Part shown: positions 56,970 to 64,000 of the stretch, one piece after another
How positions within the stretch are numbered: position 1 is the stretch's first letter
How the letters are laid out: every line of letters begins with the position of its first letter
NCBI GenBank assembly: GCA_021735655.1
Contig: JAIPGM010000007.1
Location: 1-64,000, forward strand
Direction: 5' to 3'
DNA: 64,000 bases
From: Candidatus Omnitrophota bacterium
Lineage (GTDB): Bacteria; Omnitrophota; Gorgyraeia; Duberdicusellales; 4484-171
The notes under the pieces: generated by a model
Told to the model about the DNA's origin: nothing
Databases searched by the model: none
Seen by the model: the letters and a program-made list of their open reading frames with translations, nothing else
Made by a program: the position numbers and the translations under genes

Positions 56970-58151
56970 TTAATCATCCTTTATTTTATCCAGTATTTTT
57001 GGAATTATTTCTGAAAGCGAAGCTAATTCTTTCTCATCAGGAATATATTGAAAATACTTACCTTCGGCTATTAATTCTATGCCCGAAGCCTTTAAGCCTT
57101 CTTCTAAATCCTTAAAGCCAGCCTTAGACCATCCGTAAGAACCGAAGCTAAAGCCAAACTTGGCTTTCGGCTTTAGCCCTTTTAAATAGGTAAATAAAGC
57201 CCCTAGCGAGGGAAGGATTCCATTGTTCAGTATCGGACTACCGACGATAACCGCCCTAGCAGAAAGAATATCGGCTACGACATCAGAAGTATCCTTTGTC
57301 TGCAAATTAACTAGATCCACCGGAACATTTTCTTTATCAATCAACTCATAAATTCTTCTCGCCATCTTCTCGGTAGAATGCCACATACTATCATAAATGA
57401 TAACTGCCCGTTCTTCGCTCTTGGCATTAGCCCACTTATCATAAAGATCTATAATCGTTTCGATATTCTGCTTTTGTCGCCAAATTAAACCATGAGAGGG
57501 GCAAATTGCCTCTAAATTTAAAGACTGTAAAGTCTCTAAGGCTTTTACCACTTGAACTCCATAAGGCATAACAATGTTGGCGTAATATTTAGCTGCTTCA
57601 CGAAAAATAATATCAGCACCTATCTCGTCGACAAACCGCTCACTGCTGGCATAATGTTGCCCAAAAGCATCGTTAGAAAACAATATCTGTTGATCTTTAA
57701 GGTAAGTGACCATAGAATCCGGCCAATGAACCATCGGAGTTAAGTGAAATTGCAAAGTCCGTTTGCCTATTGAAAGTTTATCCTGTGAGTCAACAACTTT
57801 GAATTTCCAATCTTTCTTATAATGCCGTCCAAGAGCCTCTTTTCCTTTAGGAGAACAAACTACTTCAGCTTGAGGACAAAAATCAAGCAGCTTATCGATT
57901 GAGCCTGAATGATCCATCTCAGCATGGTTTGAAATAATATACTGAATCTTAGACGGATGGATAATCTCCTTAATCCGGTTTAGCATGTCGTCCGATCCAT
58001 AATGTTTCACAGTATCGATTAAGGTTGGCTTTTCATCCACGATAAGATAAGCATTATAGGTAGATCCTTTTGGCGTTGAATAACCATGGAAATTCTTTAA
58101 ATCCCAATCAACATGACCAACCCAATAGATATCATCATTTATTTTAATCAT
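56970..58151 (-). CDS. flavodiiron protein (rubredoxin:oxygen/NO oxidoreductase, FprA/ROO family)
   Basis: 393 aa. The metallo-beta-lactamase-like diiron domain carries NHAEMDHSGS (HxExDH). A C-terminal flavodoxin-like domain follows. It is adjacent to rubredoxin. Confidence 0.85.
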   Translation of the reverse strand: MIKINDDIYWVGHVDWDLKNFHGYSTPKGSTYNAYLIVDEKPTLIDTVKHYGSDDMLNRIKEIIHPSKIQYIISNHAEMDHSGSIDKLLDFCPQAEVVCSPKGKEALGRHYKKDWKFKVVDSQDKLSIGKRTLQFHLTPMVHWPDSMVTYLKDQQILFSNDAFGQHYASSERFVDEIGADIIFREAAKYYANIVMPYGVQVVKALETLQSLNLEAICPSHGLIWRQKQNIETIIDLYDKWANAKSEERAVIIYDSMWHSTEKMARRIYELIDKENVPVDLVNLQTKDTSDVVADILSARAVIVGSPILNNGILPSLGALFTYLKGLKPKAKFGFSFGSYGWSKAGFKDLEEGLKASGIELIAEGKYFQYIPDEKELASLSEIIPKILDKIKDD

Positions 58152-58175
58152 AATTTAATTTATTAACCTCTCTTT

Positions 58176-58340
58176 TTAATCAGCAGCCTTCTCAAACTGA
58201 TCTTTACCTACACCACATTCAGGACACACCCAAGAATCAGGAAGTTGTTCAAAAGCAGTCCCCGGCTCTATCCCCGAACTAGGATCGCCGACTGCCGGAT
58301 CATAAATATAACCACAAACTACACATCGATATTTACTCAT
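58176..58340 (-). CDS. rubredoxin
   Basis: [15 protein letters not shown]...WVCPECG. The two CxxC pairs are present. The start is set at MSKY (RBS AAAGGAG); the track ORF is extended to 58394. Confidence 0.9.
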
Positions 58341-58591
58341 AGTTTCTCCTTTAGCTTCGATTTTACCACATTCATTACTCTTGTAAACCCTCAAAAACTA
58401 AGCCTTTAATATAATTAATCCACCCGTTAATTACAATCTAAAACAAACCAGCGAATATGAGAAAACAGGCACCAACAAGCAATAGAAGAGCCACTAAGCC
58501 TGATATTGATTCAAAACAAATCGGGCAAACGCTTTTAGTTAAAGCATGCACCTTACAGTGAAAAAGTCCTATTGTCTTCTCAATCTAAACC

Positions 58592-59014
58592 TTAGCACAC
58601 CGTTTGATTTTGTGAAAAATCAAAAATTAAACCCTTGAGCCTGTCACGCACCGTCCGAAAAGCCTCTAATTTTTCTTGATCGCCAACTACTGCAGCCGGG
58701 TCCTCTAACGACCAATGTATTTTTTTATAAACTCCCGGAAATACTGGACATTCTTTAGCAACATTATCACAAACCGTAATCAAATAGTCAAACTCCTGAC
58801 CAATGAATTCAGTTAAACTCTTTGAACGCTGGCTAGAGATATCAATGCCGATTTCGGCCAATACTTTAATTGCATAAGGATTTACCAATGATGGCTTAGA
58901 GCCGGCACTTTCTACTTTAAACCGTTCTTGAGCCATATGCCTAAAAAGACCCTCAGCCATTTGGCTACGAGCAGAATTCTGAGTGCACAAAACTAAAACT
59001 CTCTTTTTTTTCAT
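58592..59014 (-). CDS. arsC: arsenate reductase, thioredoxin-coupled LMW-PTP family (ArsC)
   Basis: It has the P-loop LCTQNSARSQMAEG and a second Cys pair in TVCDNVAKECP, as in ArsC Cys82/Cys89. The probable start is MKKKRVLVL. Confidence 0.7.
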   Translation of the reverse strand: MKKKRVLVLCTQNSARSQMAEGLFRHMAQERFKVESAGSKPSLVNPYAIKVLAEIGIDISSQRSKSLTEFIGQEFDYLITVCDNVAKECPVFPGVYKKIHWSLEDPAAVVGDQEKLEAFRTVRDRLKGLIFDFSQNQTVC

Positions 59015-59058
59015 TAAAAAATTAATTTTTAGCAGCAACCGCCACCTAAAGACTCCTT

Positions 59059-60189
59059 TTATTTTCTACACAACTCTTTTTCCTTAATGTCTATTGTTTG
59101 AAGCAACGAATCAAAAGAACCCTGAAAAGCAATAACTCCTTTTTCCAACAACTCTTGGCAAACCTGGTTTAAATCAATACCTAAACTTCCAAGACTGTCA
59201 ACGATAGACTTAGCTCCTAAGATATCACCGTCCAAAGAAATATTAGCTACCCCGTGGTCAAGAAAGGCTTGAAAGGTAGCCTCAGGCAAAGTGTTAACCG
59301 TATTTTTTCCAATCAATTCAGTAACATATTTGATGTCGCTGTAGGCTGGACTTTTTGTCGAGGTTGAAGCCCAAAGAACCCTTTGTAAATTTGCCCCTCT
59401 TTGCTTTAACGATTTAAACTGATTGGATGAAAAAATATCTAAATATTCCTTATAAATTAACTTTGAGTTTGAAACGGCGGCTTTCCCTTTTAATAATTCT
59501 AAATTAACTTTTTCTTGATCGGAACTATCAATTATCATCTCATCTAGAAACCGGTCAATTACGCTATCAATCCTACTTACGAAAACGCTGGCTACCGAAT
59601 GTAGATTTTTTAACTGACCGCCGATCTCTAGGAATCGCTTTAAACCATTCATATAAGAAGCAGCCGTTTTCTTATACTGCTCTAAAGAAAAAATTAGAGT
59701 CGCGTTAACATTCATGCCTTGAGCCAATATCTCCTCAATTGCCCTAAAGCCTTCTTCAGTCGCCGGAATCTTTAGCATTAAATTTGGCCGCTTAACCTTA
59801 GTCCAAAGCCGTTTAGCTTCTTCAATAGTCTCTTCTGTGTTATAAGCAAGCTGAGGATTAACCTCTAGACTAACATAGCCATCCTTACGGTTACTTTCAT
59901 TGTAGACTACGCTTAAAAGATCAGCGGCTTCCTGAATATCCTTTACCGTTAAATTATCATATATCTCAAATGTAGATAACCCTTGTGCTGCCGATTCTTT
60001 AATTTTCTGATCATAATCAGAACCTTTTGAAATAGCCTTATCAAATATTGTAGGATTGGAAGTAATTCCCTTTAATCCTAAGGCGATCATTTCCTCGAGC
60101 CCACCCTTTTCAATTAAAGGACGGCTGATCTGATCCAACCAGGCACTTTGGCCTGCATCATACAACTCAACAATTCTTGTCTTATCCAC
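59059..60189 (-). CDS. tal: transaldolase
   Basis: 376 aa with GQSAWLDQISR and ITSNPTIF, and a Lys Schiff-base region. Confidence 0.8.
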   Translation of the reverse strand: MDKTRIVELYDAGQSAWLDQISRPLIEKGGLEEMIALGLKGITSNPTIFDKAISKGSDYDQKIKESAAQGLSTFEIYDNLTVKDIQEAADLLSVVYNESNRKDGYVSLEVNPQLAYNTEETIEEAKRLWTKVKRPNLMLKIPATEEGFRAIEEILAQGMNVNATLIFSLEQYKKTAASYMNGLKRFLEIGGQLKNLHSVASVFVSRIDSVIDRFLDEMIIDSSDQEKVNLELLKGKAAVSNSKLIYKEYLDIFSSNQFKSLKQRGANLQRVLWASTSTKSPAYSDIKYVTELIGKNTVNTLPEATFQAFLDHGVANISLDGDILGAKSIVDSLGSLGIDLNQVCQELLEKGVIAFQGSFDSLLQTIDIKEKELCRK

Positions 60190-60344
60190 CGCTTACTCCT
60201 TTTTAGTTAGATAACTTACCTATCTAATATCATAATACATTCTTCCCAAACGCTCTGTAAATGACCCAAATATAAAACCCAAAGTTAACAACCAATTTAA
60301 GTATAATTACTGAAATCGTTTAGTCTATTAATCCCTAAAACCGA

Positions 60345-60884
60345 TTAATTAGAAATCCTGATCTTTAATGGTCCCTTATAAATTGATATCTTGGGCTTAA
60401 TTAACTCTTGATCTTCGGAAGTCCCTTTTTTCCCAGACAAAAATTCTTCAATGTCAACAAGGAAAACCGTTGTCAAATTATCTTCATCCATATTTTCGGC
60501 ATCCGAATCTTCATGAATAACTATTTTAATCGTATGCCAACTTCCTAATTTATGAGCTTCAACTCCCCCGACATAAGTTCCTTGCCCCAAATTATCAGCA
60601 AAAAAACTATAAGGAGACTTTCCAACTCCAGCCATTGCTGAACCCTTTAATAACCAAACAGTATACAAGCCACGAGGCTCTAAACCCTTTGCCTTGAACT
60701 CAATCCTATTCTTTCCACCGTAATAAATATTTTCGTTTAAAAAAACTTTCAACTCTGCTTTATGATGAACGCCCTGCCCCTTAGCTGTAATTTTAGACTC
60801 AGCAAAAACTCCAATCGATAAACCAAAAACAAAAATTAAGAATGCTACGATTTTAACCCAATGGCCATAAATTTTCATCTTCAA
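60345..60884 (-). CDS. exported hypothetical protein
   Basis: 179 aa. Signal peptide WVKIVAFLIFVFGLSIGVFA. The mature part is beta-rich and His-rich with an acidic stretch DSDAENMDEDN. I recognise no family. Confidence 0.4.
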   Translation of the reverse strand: MKMKIYGHWVKIVAFLIFVFGLSIGVFAESKITAKGQGVHHKAELKVFLNENIYYGGKNRIEFKAKGLEPRGLYTVWLLKGSAMAGVGKSPYSFFADNLGQGTYVGGVEAHKLGSWHTIKIVIHEDSDAENMDEDNLTTVFLVDIEEFLSGKKGTSEDQELIKPKISIYKGPLKIRISN

Positions 60885-60898
60885 ATCTCCTTTGACTA

Positions 60899-62065
60899 TT
60901 AAAATATTAGATTAGCAATAAATCCTAAAACAATTACCTGGGGAACAGTTACGATCGGAAGCCAAATAGCAACTCTCCGACCAACGTTATGCCAAAGAAG
61001 CCCAATCTCAGTATAGTCAATAACTACCCCGGCCATAAGAAAAACAAAACTGTTTCCCAAAGCTCCGGTTTGTTTAAATATTTCAAAGGCTAAGGGAGCT
61101 GACCCCTCAGAACATACCTCAATTACGGTGGCAACAGCCAAAGTGACTAAAAGCCCCAAAACCGTTGGGCCCATATAGTTACTAAAAATACTTGAAGGAA
61201 TATAGGCTCCGGCTAAGCTAGCTAATCCAGTACCGATTAGAATCCACCAAAGAACCATATTGCTTAGAGAAATGGCTCCTTTGTATATACCTTTTAAATC
61301 CGACTTGAAAATAGCAAAAGAAAATTTTCGTCGCTTAATCCGCAGCTTTAAATCTTTAATTACCGAAAAATCTTCTGCAACATTTACAGTATTAGTATTA
61401 CTCTCAATCAACCCCTGATTTTCTAGAAATTGAAAAATAAATCCGGTGATTATCGCAATGATAATCGCTGAAATAATTATAAATAGGGCTTTTAAACCAA
61501 AAAGCCCTATTAACATTATGGTTAAAACCATATTCGCCCAGGGACTCGCCAAGAGAAAAGCTACAACCGCTGGGTTTGAAGCTCCTTTTTTATGTAACTG
61601 GATTGAAATAGCAAGGATTCCGTGCGAACAAACACTCATTAAAAAACCGAGAAAAACCGAATAAAAAATTGTTCGCTTTCTAGGACGGGAAAGAAGCAAT
61701 GAAATATAGTGACGAGGTATATAGTGCTCGATAACTCCTCCAACTAAAAGACCTAAAGCTATGGCCCACCAGAGGATTTTAAAATAATTAAATAAAGTTT
61801 TTCTAAATGGTTCAAGCAGAGGAATAAAATAGGAAGCTAAACTCAAAATAGCCATGGCCAAGGCAACAATGAATGTTTTATTTTTATAAAAAGGGTTTTT
61901 TGCTACCGTTAGGCAACTCTTAAGTTTTAATTGAGGTATTTTATTGTCTTGAGCGAACTTTTCTAAACAGCTCTGGCTACAAAAAAAGAAAGTCTCACTC
62001 TCGTGATCAATCTGTAAGCTCTTTTTTTCGTTAACCTTCATTCCGCAAATAGGATCTTGAGCCAC
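60899..62065 (-). CDS. DUF318/COG0701-family permease with N-terminal YHS (TRASH-like) metal-binding domain
   Basis: 388 aa. The N-terminal DPICGMKVNEKKSLQIDHESETFFFCSQSCLEKF matches the YHS pattern (CGM...FCSxxC). The body has 8 or more TM helices. The CS-type repeats SVCSHGILA and EVCSEGSAPLA resemble the CSCSxxPL signature of DUF318/ArsP-type permeases. Confidence 0.5.
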   Translation of the reverse strand: MAQDPICGMKVNEKKSLQIDHESETFFFCSQSCLEKFAQDNKIPQLKLKSCLTVAKNPFYKNKTFIVALAMAILSLASYFIPLLEPFRKTLFNYFKILWWAIALGLLVGGVIEHYIPRHYISLLLSRPRKRTIFYSVFLGFLMSVCSHGILAISIQLHKKGASNPAVVAFLLASPWANMVLTIMLIGLFGLKALFIIISAIIIAIITGFIFQFLENQGLIESNTNTVNVAEDFSVIKDLKLRIKRRKFSFAIFKSDLKGIYKGAISLSNMVLWWILIGTGLASLAGAYIPSSIFSNYMGPTVLGLLVTLAVATVIEVCSEGSAPLAFEIFKQTGALGNSFVFLMAGVVIDYTEIGLLWHNVGRRVAIWLPIVTVPQVIVLGFIANLIF

Positions 62066-62075
62066 TGGGAGTCTC

Positions 62076-62513
62076 CTACTTTAAAAAATCAATATAAACA
62101 GCCAGTAATAATGCTAACCCGGAAAAAATAAAGATAAAAAAATAATTAATTTTATCCTTTTTTGAACTCAATTGACAAAGTAATGTTCCCAAAAGTTCAT
62201 AGTCATGATCGGACAGTTCTTGCTTTGAAAGCAGCTTAGGAGTAAGCTGAGAATCCTTTAACTGACGATGCATCAAATTATGACGTCTGAATTTATAGAT
62301 AAAAAATAAGGTAAACCCGCTTATTCCAACATACCAAAATATCTTTGCCAGCATCGGATTAAAATCCAAAACTAAATTAACCGCCCTGACTGATATTGTT
62401 GCGATCAAAGCTATAGTAAAAAACACCCAAGCAATCGGTGATTCTTTGCAAGTTTTTAATCTGATACAGTCCTGGCAGATGAACTTTTTATCTTTCTTAA
62501 GTGATTTCGACAT
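62076..62513 (-). CDS. hypothetical membrane protein with N-terminal Cys cluster (CQDCIRLKTC)
   Basis: 145 aa. It has a cytoplasmic Cys-x2-C-x6-C segment followed by 3-4 TM helices. I recognise no family. Confidence 0.4.
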   Translation of the reverse strand: MSKSLKKDKKFICQDCIRLKTCKESPIAWVFFTIALIATISVRAVNLVLDFNPMLAKIFWYVGISGFTLFFIYKFRRHNLMHRQLKDSQLTPKLLSKQELSDHDYELLGTLLCQLSSKKDKINYFFIFIFSGLALLLAVYIDFLK

Positions 62514-62515
62514 TA

Positions 62516-63016
62516 CTACCTAATAGACTTTAATAAATCTTGAAGCAAGCCCCTATGATTTTTCTCTTCACTGATAATTCTATCTAATTCTTTTTTAACT
62601 TTCTCAGCAGAAACTGAATTTTTGCAAAATTCATAGAAGGCAACTGTCTTACTCTCAATGACAACAGCTAACTCTATTGCTTTTTTGGTATCAGTAATAA
62701 TCTTTTCTAGTTCTTCTTGTCTTTTAAGACCCTGGAAAATTCCAAAATCAATACTGCTTAATAAATCATTATCTTCGGAAATATCTTCGCCGTTCTTTCT
62801 TACTTCGCTTAGAAGATATTCAAAAATTCTCAAGTGTCGAACTTCCTCAGAAACTAAAAGCTCCAAGGTACTTTTAACCTGCAGCTCAACTACTTTGGCA
62901 GCTAATCTTTTATAAAAATCCACGCCATCTTTCTCAATTTTTTCAGCTATTCGATAAGCTTCAAATTCTGTAAAATCGGTAATTACCAGTTTATCATTTT
63001 TTTCTTCTATTTTCAT
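62516..63016 (-). CDS. ferritin-like/rubrerythrin-like diiron protein (paralog 3)
   Basis: 166 aa: FEAYRIAEKIEKDGVDFYKRLA, SEEVRHLRIF (ExxH), AIELAVVIESKTVAFY, SEEKNHRGLL (ExxH). The RBS is GGAGGG. Confidence 0.55.
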   Translation of the reverse strand: MKIEEKNDKLVITDFTEFEAYRIAEKIEKDGVDFYKRLAAKVVELQVKSTLELLVSEEVRHLRIFEYLLSEVRKNGEDISEDNDLLSSIDFGIFQGLKRQEELEKIITDTKKAIELAVVIESKTVAFYEFCKNSVSAEKVKKELDRIISEEKNHRGLLQDLLKSIR

Positions 63017-63135
63017 AACCAGCCCTCCATTTGATCAATTATTCTAGCTATTATAAAATCATTATCAGTAAACCCCACGGAAACTAACAACTCTAAAAAA
63101 GGAAAAGGGCTTTCCTGAAATACCACCTTTCGCAT
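63013..63135 (-). CDS. possible 40-aa micro-ORF (MRKVVFQESPFPFLELLVSVGFTDNDFIIARIIDQMEGWL); not in ORF track
   Basis: The RBS GAAGGAG lies 7 nt upstream of the ATG at 63135. Its TGA stop overlaps the ATG of the downstream ferritin-like gene (ATGA). Support is weak: coupling and RBS only. Confidence 0.25.
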   Translation of the reverse strand: MRKVVFQESPFPFLELLVSVGFTDNDFIIARIIDQMEGWL

Positions 63136-63154
63136 AGCAATGCTCCTTCAGAAA

Positions 63155-63289
63155 TTAAAGATTCCAACTTCCTTTTTCTTTAGTCGTCATCGTCTTATTA
63201 CAACATTTTATCTTTTTGGTTGATTTTTTACCCTTGCCACAAATAACACAAAGGTAAGCTTTTTTTTTATTAGTCTTTCTTTTCGCCAT
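63155..63289 (-). CDS. 44-aa Lys/Cys-rich zinc-ribbon-like micro-protein (MAKRKTNKKKAYLCVICGKGKKSTKKIKCCNKTMTTKEKGSWNL); not in ORF track
   Basis: Its ATG overlaps the stop of the upstream CxxCP membrane protein (TAATG). The RBS AGGAGA lies 5 nt upstream. CxxC plus CC could form a 4-Cys metal site. Confidence 0.4.
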   Translation of the reverse strand: MAKRKTNKKKAYLCVICGKGKKSTKKIKCCNKTMTTKEKGSWNL

Positions 63290-63729
63290 TATTTTCTCCT
63301 ATTCAATAATCTAATTTTCGTCTGTAATGTCCCCATCGGACAAACCGCACACCAAGTGCGAGCCTGAAAAGGAATCCCGATGAAAATTGCAATCAAGGTA
63401 GTTACTAGGCACATTCTTACAAAAACAAAACCTAGCGAATAAACATTTCTCTCGACCACAAAAAGTTGACTAGCAAAAAAAATCATAAAGATCGCAAATA
63501 CCCCCCAACGAAACTTCTGGCTAGCAAAAATTCTTGGAAGCTGAGCTTTACGACTAACTCTGCTTAAAGCCAAATCCAAAAATGCTCCCCGCGGGCAAAG
63601 ATGTGAGCACCAAAACCTCCCCTTAAAATAGGATAAACTTAAAAGAAAAATCATCATCAATAACACCAAGTAGCCTAAAAGAGGAAAAAATAACCCACCG
63701 ACGATGATTAAAGGTAAAAACCAAACCAT
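63289..63729 (-). CDS. membrane protein with two CxxCP motifs (NapH/polyferredoxin-like Fe-S-binding family)
   Basis: It has four TM helices, with FWCSHLCPRGAF and TWCAVCPMGTLQ on loops. The track ORF begins at a TTG at 63762 that would overlap the upstream gene. The ATG at about 63729 (IMVWF) is more plausible. Confidence 0.5.
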   Translation of the reverse strand: MVWFLPLIIVGGLFFPLLGYLVLLMMIFLLSLSYFKGRFWCSHLCPRGAFLDLALSRVSRKAQLPRIFASQKFRWGVFAIFMIFFASQLFVVERNVYSLGFVFVRMCLVTTLIAIFIGIPFQARTWCAVCPMGTLQTKIRLLNRRK

Positions 63730-63746
63730 TATCAACTGACTAAGTT

Positions 63747-64000
63747 TTACTTTTTTTCCCAAAACTCTTCAGCCTCCTCTTCCATTTTTTCTAGCCGATC
63801 ATAATAATCAGGAAATTCATTAAGATGGGCCAAGGCAATTTTTCCGGTAGTTAAGGGATCATCGTTGCTAACATTGGTCTTTGAGTCTACCAAACCATGC
63901 TCTAACTCTACATCCATACCTGTCCTAAACTGATCAAGATCAAATTTATCCCATTTAATTCCTAATTGCTTGCCGATAGCTTTTGCTTCATCTGAGGTAA
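63747..64000 (-). CDS. partial CDS (C-terminal 84 aa; N-terminus beyond window end), hypothetical
   Basis: An open frame runs from the window edge to TAA at 63749..63747. It translates as ...KAIGKQLGIKWDKFDLDQFRTGMDVELEHGLVDSKTNVSNDDPLTTGKIALAHLNEFPDYYDRLEKMEEEAEEFWEKK. The family is not recognised. Confidence 0.4.
   Translation of the reverse strand, partial: TSDEAKAIGKQLGIKWDKFDLDQFRTGMDVELEHGLVDSKTNVSNDDPLTTGKIALAHLNEFPDYYDRLEKMEEEAEEFWEKK

Follow-up and report, generated by a model that had tools for sequence, protein, structure and literature searches.

Rubredoxin (PF00301), a small Cys4 iron protein with a first knuckle Y-x-C-x-x-C-G and CPxCG as its second element, serves in anaerobes as electron donor to superoxide reductase (SOR), rubrerythrin and flavodiiron protein (FDP). 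Desulforedoxin, represented by D. gigas Dx (PDB 1DXG) and by the N-terminal domain of desulfoferrodoxin (Dfx) or 2Fe-SOR (PF06397), carries its Fe(Cys)4 site on a CxxC pair and a vicinal CC pair, for which the canonical spacing is CX2CX15CC (PMC3116461). It is a homodimer, with distorted tetrahedral geometry at the iron and a fold of two knuckles on a small beta-sheet. Membrane ferredoxins of the NapH/MauN type combine a polytopic membrane module containing two CxxCP motifs with a C-terminal 2x[4Fe-4S] ferredoxin domain. The locus described here comes from the Omnitrophota, an uncultured, widespread anaerobic phylum, and lies in a stretch of 64,000 nt that was analysed as a whole (the window). 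Between the gene of a CxxCP membrane protein (Fer4_5 protein) and that of a 166-aa ferritin-like protein (RbrL166) it contains two small ORFs, one of 44 aa (sA44) and one of 40 aa (sB40). The reading favoured here, which we hold to be somewhat better than an even call, takes sA44 as the gene of a desulforedoxin-like electron carrier and sB40 as a deletion relic of a gene fusing thiol peroxidase and Pterin_4a domains.

All genes at this locus are on the minus strand (Table 1). The CxxCP motifs of the Fer4_5 protein read CSHLCP and CAVCP, and the TAA of its gene (63291..63289) overlaps the ATG of sA44 (63289..63287) in the sequence TAATG, which places the Fer4_5 gene upstream and translationally coupled. 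sA44 itself (MAKRKTNKKKAYLCVICGKGKKSTKKIKCCNKTMTTKEKGSWNL) contains four cysteines and stops with a TAA at 63157..63155, a spacer of 19 nt (63154..63136) that contains GAAGGAG leads to sB40, and the TGA of sB40 overlaps the ATG of RbrL166 (ATGA, about 63016..63013). Direct reading of the minus strand confirms these features as they were given in the preliminary description, including the AGGAGA ahead of sA44. Its remark that the small ORFs are missing from the gene track also fits, as both were called in the Logan assembly and their exact sequences were found under the Logan source only, while the flanking proteins have NCBI accessions. A terminator scan found none between the Fer4_5 gene and the ferritin-like gene, an Rfam scan of 58000-64000 found no RNA family, and promoter-like matches inside sB40 were at background level. 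RbrL166 has orthologues in two of the comparison loci (which carry the prefix L), L009 (61%) and L013 (48%). The 388-aa permease further downstream gave a match to the SO_0444-like NCBIfam model under the cutoff.

Table 1. Features of the locus, with positions in the window and the basis of each assignment.
Feature	Position	Strand	Basis
Fer4_5 protein (CxxCP), 157-aa membrane protein with two CxxCP motifs; NapH-like membrane module only	63289..63762	-	ORF translation; Pfam PF12801, E 6.4e-15 with two stretches
AGGAGA, Shine-Dalgarno of sA44, within the 3' end of the Fer4_5 gene	63295..63300	-	sequence reading
sA44, polybasic Cys4 mini-protein, probably desulforedoxin-like; C14, C17, C29, C30, M34; C-terminal KGSWNL	63155..63289	-	orthologue in L002, family, pN/pS, hhalign, Foldseek
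GAAGGAG, Shine-Dalgarno of sB40, probably inherited from an ancestral Tpx-Pterin_4a gene	63143..63149	-	sequence; comparable RBSs at the same position in intact Tpx-PCD genes
sB40, 40-aa ORF, read as what a large internal deletion left of a thiol peroxidase-Pterin_4a fusion gene	63013..63135	-	singleton cluster; Tpx-PCD profile match
sB40 codons 1-14, MRKVVFQESPFPFL, possibly the kept thiol peroxidase N-terminus (suggestive only)	63094..63135	-	N-terminal resemblance to L020
sB40 codons 21-38, GFTDNDFIIARIIDQMEG, homologue of the final Pterin_4a helix in the fusion gene	63022..63075	-	C-terminal profile, tblastn, DNA alignment
RbrL166, 166-aa rubrerythrin/ferritin-like protein, start overlapping the sB40 stop	62516..63016	-	Pfam Rubrerythrin, E 3e-9
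145-aa membrane protein, no family	62076..62513	-	always directly precedes the YHS-ArsP_1 permease
388-aa permease, YHS and ArsP_1, putative metal efflux	60899..62065	-	Pfam ArsP_1, E 6e-35; YHS, E 3e-10
Rubredoxin	58176..58394

A word-indexed search with the 44-aa sequence alone matched only itself, which reflects a limit of sensitivity and not a real absence. An exhaustive phmmer search of 1.84e9 representatives returned 11 small homologues of sA44, and a profile search 69 clusters of 40-71 aa. The family is put at about 66-69 homologue clusters of 40-58 aa, all taxon-labelled ones of which belong to Omnitrophota/PVC metagenome genomes. Loci containing an orthologous gene (sA) were searched for with a 12-sequence subset of the alignment, which yielded six genome and three metagenome loci, and the orthologue at the same position in the closest locus, L002, is MMAKRKAKKEKAYVCVVCGKGKKAAKKVKCCSKDMVAKKRGSWNL. 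In the 66-sequence family alignment C14, C17, C29 and C30 are invariant, and conservation of M34 and W42 reaches 90% or more. The loop between the two cysteine pairs measures 11 residues in 60 of the 66 members (range 9-16), a methionine stands four residues past the CC pair in 65 and a tyrosine two residues ahead of Cys1 in 48. The family is polybasic, with a median net charge of +11 over the 66 members and +14 for sA44 itself, in which Lys and Arg make up 34% of the residues. In closer pairs pN is 0.14-0.24 against a pS of 0.8-1.0, with synonymous sites saturated. As a member of a conserved family under purifying selection, sA44 is more than a chance ORF; judged by these sequence comparisons, it is a real gene of a conserved Cys4 family, clearly beyond chance. 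The conserved Cys spacing in orthologous loci to which the preliminary description had looked thus holds for sA44.

No match to sA44 was found in Pfam (E<=1) or NCBIfam. The Pfam family SBSPON_C, hit by 27 of the 66 family members with a best E of 4e-4, was taken as compositional noise from Lys and Cys. It is also unlikely that sA44 is a C-terminal extension split from the Fer4_5 protein by a frameshift, since sA occurs without Fer4_5 as well; the listed Fer4_5 homologues mostly measure 144-175 aa (longest 195), and none of those read has such a tail.

The Cys pattern of sA44, CxxC-x11-CC, is set in the signature Y-x-C-x2-C-G...C-C-x3-M, which is that of the desulforedoxin Fe(Cys)4 site. Profile-profile comparison by hhalign of the sA44 family with D. 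gigas desulforedoxin gave 81% and E 1.2e-5, and with a four-sequence Dx alignment 88.6% and E 2.6e-6; the aligned stretch includes the Met and the four Cys and is broken by a single gap of four residues. In the rubredoxin control only nine columns were aligned. In a profile search of the PDB, desulforedoxin was among the few listed matches that cover the second Cys pair (E 0.14). Scores for the relation from HMMER were low, at 13.7, 10.5 and 6 bits: the family HMM reached only 13.7 bits against D. gigas Dx, and the Dx HMM gave sA44 6 bits (E 0.68 within the window), ranked behind rubredoxin. Weak PF06397 matches occur in 18 of the 66 members (best E 0.0074), all below the Pfam gathering threshold of 23 bits. 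The AlphaFold model of sA44 (pLDDT 71) has 1dxg and Dfx N-terminal domains as its top six Foldseek matches in the PDB, with probabilities of 0.99-0.75; the model of a divergent member, P0189 (pLDDT 64.7), is partly helical, has no Foldseek match and does not reproduce the Dx-like fold. A relation of sA44 to desulforedoxin is probable, though HMMER does not put the homology on a statistically secure footing. The same genome encodes a canonical 39-aa Dx that scores about 63 bits (63.3) to PF06397, and sA44 is therefore a separate paralogous lineage at best. Of the zinc-ribbon or rubredoxin-like peptide proposed earlier, the rubredoxin-like part comes close, the best match being a desulforedoxin-type Fe(Cys)4 site, while rubredoxin itself does not fit, given the nine aligned columns and the CC in the second element.

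The setting of sA is an oxygen-stress/iron operon in every informative locus except L012, where the neighbourhood is one of FKBP and a sensor kinase. A NAD_binding_1 gene is present in 13 of the 16 distinct sA loci, together with NifU, SOR, rubrerythrin, hybrid-cluster protein (HCP) and rubredoxin, and the operons are headed by Fur, Rrf2 or Rex. This gene content bears out the metal or electron-transfer operon that had been suspected. In such an operon of the Fur/PerR type, serving oxygen stress and iron, sA44 may act as a one-electron carrier with a single metal, which would most likely be Fe held in a distorted Fe(Cys)4 centre. Its electrons would come from the NAD_binding_1 protein, an FNR-like NAD(P)H oxidoreductase, and from the Fer4_5 protein where present, and would go on to SOR, rubrerythrins, HCP or FDP, with docking presumably mediated by its positive charge and the conserved C-terminal KGSWNL. 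In a more far-reaching form, which we regard as possible though doubtful, the sA44 family would be an undescribed polybasic, short-loop relative of desulforedoxin that docks by KGSWNL and acts as a hub carrier in Omnitrophota, connecting an FNR-like reductase for NAD(P)H with SOR, rubrerythrin, HCP and FDP and also with the adjacent iron/metal exporters, with a quinol-linked Fer4_5 feed in some lineages. If this were so, the operon would possess a path for electrons from membrane to cytoplasm that has no known counterpart in model anaerobes.

Other functions of sA44 have to be weighed against that of an electron carrier. The transporters nearby suggest a metal or metalloid chaperone or sensor, which would use the CxxC and CC pairs to capture Fe(II), Zn, Cu(I) or As(III) and would either deliver the ion to adjacent exporters such as the YHS/HMA-ArsP_1 permease or erythrin-VIT1, or gate them. 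A putative metal exporter is found within three genes downstream of sA in nine of about 14 informative loci: ArsP_1 lies immediately 3' of sA in L002/L003 and follows it, across a gap of ~400 nt with no gene between, in L015, while erythrin-VIT1 adjoins sA in L010 and L011 and is one short ORF further in L017. Metal-binding domains of the YHS or HMA type are present in the permeases, the operon includes an ArsC-like LMWPc gene (directly downstream of sA in L014), and Fur-family regulators head sA operons. However, the most constant neighbours of sA are redox enzymes; L020 has no transporter near sA, in L018 and L019 it is more than seven genes away, and the context Y-x-C-x2-C-G with CC-x3-M is that of one redox protein in particular, desulforedoxin. 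Four-Cys tetrahedral sites, moreover, usually bind metal too tightly for hand-off by a chaperone, and a chaperone or sensor is an unlikely function for sA44, if the most substantial of the competing ones. A structural role as a zinc-ribbon protein on nucleic acid or the ribosome, in the manner of basic ribosomal mini-proteins and with a regulatory or incidental place in the operon, would account for the high Lys and Arg content and net charge of sA44 and for profile matches to C2H2 fingers and ribosomal zinc-ribbon proteins via the first knuckle. These matches are limited to the CxxCG knuckle, though, a vicinal CC with a Met is atypical for zinc ribbons, and, L012 apart, sA sits in oxygen-stress/iron operons and never in ribosomal or nucleic-acid contexts, so that such a role appears very improbable.

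The preliminary description had proposed a dedicated partnership with the CxxCP membrane protein, with sA44 as soluble partner or subunit in a two-component membrane electron-transfer module. NapH-type proteins do pass electrons to soluble Fe-S partners, and a polybasic sA44 could dock at the membrane surface. Wherever both genes occur they are adjacent with stop and start overlapping, in TAATG in the window, over 4 nt in L002 and L022, and likewise in L021. Yet Fer4_5 adjoins sA in only four of the 16 distinct loci, and two of three loci examined for Fer4_5 orthologues (65-66% identity; L004/L005 and L006/L007) have no sA following. In L008, L009 and L018 sA stands directly after DUF5661, and Fer4_5 therefore looks like an optional insertion. 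The case for an exclusive partnership is thus weak, and we consider it quite unlikely. The Fer4_5 protein has 308 homologues at E<=1e-5, and all those named by taxon are from Omnitrophota.

The 90%-identity cluster of sB40 has a single member in a collection of 15 billion proteins, and no orthologue is present in the closest loci, L002, where sA is directly followed by ArsP_1, and L009, where the RbrL166 orthologue follows 14 nt later. The slot after sA in L008, L020 and L021 is filled by a protein of 282-285 aa with AhpC-TSA/Redoxin and Pterin_4a domains (Tpx-PCD). A profile of these three proteins has sB40 as its sole significant match among 1112 window segments (E 3.1e-4), the C-terminal sub-profile matches sB40 with E 2.2e-7, and in a tblastn comparison residues 21-38 of sB40 fell precisely at the 3' end of each of the three genes (E 2.4e-5 to 5.6e-4). 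The C-terminal 18 residues are 61-67% identical to the Tpx-PCD orthologues, the same level as for the flanking genes, and in the intact Tpx-PCD genes the Pterin_4a profile is covered to position 91 of 91. At the DNA level, L021 shares the ...GATGA stop/start overlap, with RBS and ATG at the same place. At the N-terminus, MRKVVFQESP in sB40 compares with MRKVTFKGDP in L020; the N-terminal Tpx-PCD profile ranks sB40 first in the window, though with an E of 0.37 that is not significant alone. sB40 has no Pfam match and contains no complete Pterin_4a or thiol peroxidase domain.

On the strength of these alignments, sB40 is not a chance ORF but can be accounted for as part of a once larger gene; most likely it is a deletion relic of a thiol peroxidase-Pterin_4a fusion and not an independent micro-protein. 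An internal deletion of roughly 245 codons (~740 nt), apparently in frame, in a gene of roughly 285 aa would have left the RBS, perhaps the first ~14 codons, the last ~20 codons and the stop overlapping the start of the next gene. Translation of this stump probably continues, and it may do no more than lead ribosomes into the ferritin-like gene. The relic is found in one genome only, whose two assemblies are identical; the Logan contig agrees with the window at 100% over 6712 nt, hence the assemblies are not independent and give no independent support for the deletion. That sB40 is an N-terminal piece of the ferritin-like protein was rejected, as the orthologues in L009 and L013, which lack such a piece, begin at the same position. 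A functional micro-protein, such as a neo-functionalised peptide or a device for coupling that selection maintains, would be in line with the intact ORF, the strong RBS, the ATG and the ATGA overlap with the next gene, with the apparently in-frame deletion and with the similarity kept in the C-terminal 18 residues. Against this stand the singleton status and the absence from the closest loci, including L009 with its gap of 14 nt between sA and the ferritin-like gene, and neither domain of the 285-aa protein can be formed by 40 aa taken from its two ends; we hold a function of sB40 to be decidedly improbable.

Taken together, the proposal that both small ORFs are real stands for sA44, with its conserved family under purifying selection, and falls for sB40, a singleton that is missing from the closest loci and ends in the tail of a Tpx-Pterin_4a protein. 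The argument that such coupling is rarely accidental does not carry over to sB40 either, whose coupling signals were probably inherited from the Tpx-Pterin_4a gene and therefore do not show a function. As a caution of wider use, a perfect RBS and an ATGA overlap can be the legacy of a gene since deleted and are thus no evidence of a functional micro-ORF. The sA44 family, in turn, is 'hypothetical' or uncalled at NCBI and included in no Pfam or NCBIfam model, while being a regular part of the Omnitrophota oxygen-stress/iron operon. Should sA44 prove to be a carrier of the Fe(Cys)4 kind, the one-electron link still missing for the FNR-like reductase of the operon would have a name, and the desulforedoxin-type centre would extend to very different electrostatics and loop design. 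Literature searches for desulforedoxin in Omnitrophica, for rubrerythrin and SOR in Omnitrophota and for peroxiredoxin-PCD fusions found nothing.

The 157-aa Fer4_5 protein shares the two CxxCP motifs and the polytopic membrane module of NapH/MauN, but it lacks the C-terminal ferredoxin domain, scores 23 bits in the NCBIfam NapH models against cutoffs of 213-234, and has no nap genes near its own. sB40 resembles the Tpx-Pterin_4a fusion in its last ~18 residues, genomic slot, RBS position and stop/start overlap, and there is a resemblance to the Tpx N-terminus over the first ~10 residues; without about 245 internal codons and both catalytic cores, it is a functional member of neither family. 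With rubredoxin, sA44 has in common that it is a small Cys4 protein with the same first knuckle, whereas its second element is CC instead of CPxCG and it is without the hydrophobic core and the length of rubredoxin. The likeness to desulforedoxin extends to the size class of about 36-44 aa, the four Cys as CxxC and vicinal CC, the Tyr two before Cys1, the Gly after Cys2, the Met four past CC and the kind of operon (SOR, rubrerythrin, rubredoxin). In contrast, the loop is of 11 residues instead of 15 and thus departs from CX2CX15CC, the net charge is +11 to +14 in the sA44 family as against -4, and sA44 adds a Lys-rich N-terminal tail of ~10 residues and the conserved C-terminal K-G-S-W-N-L extension; its extreme basicity sets sA44 apart from known desulforedoxins and rubredoxins.

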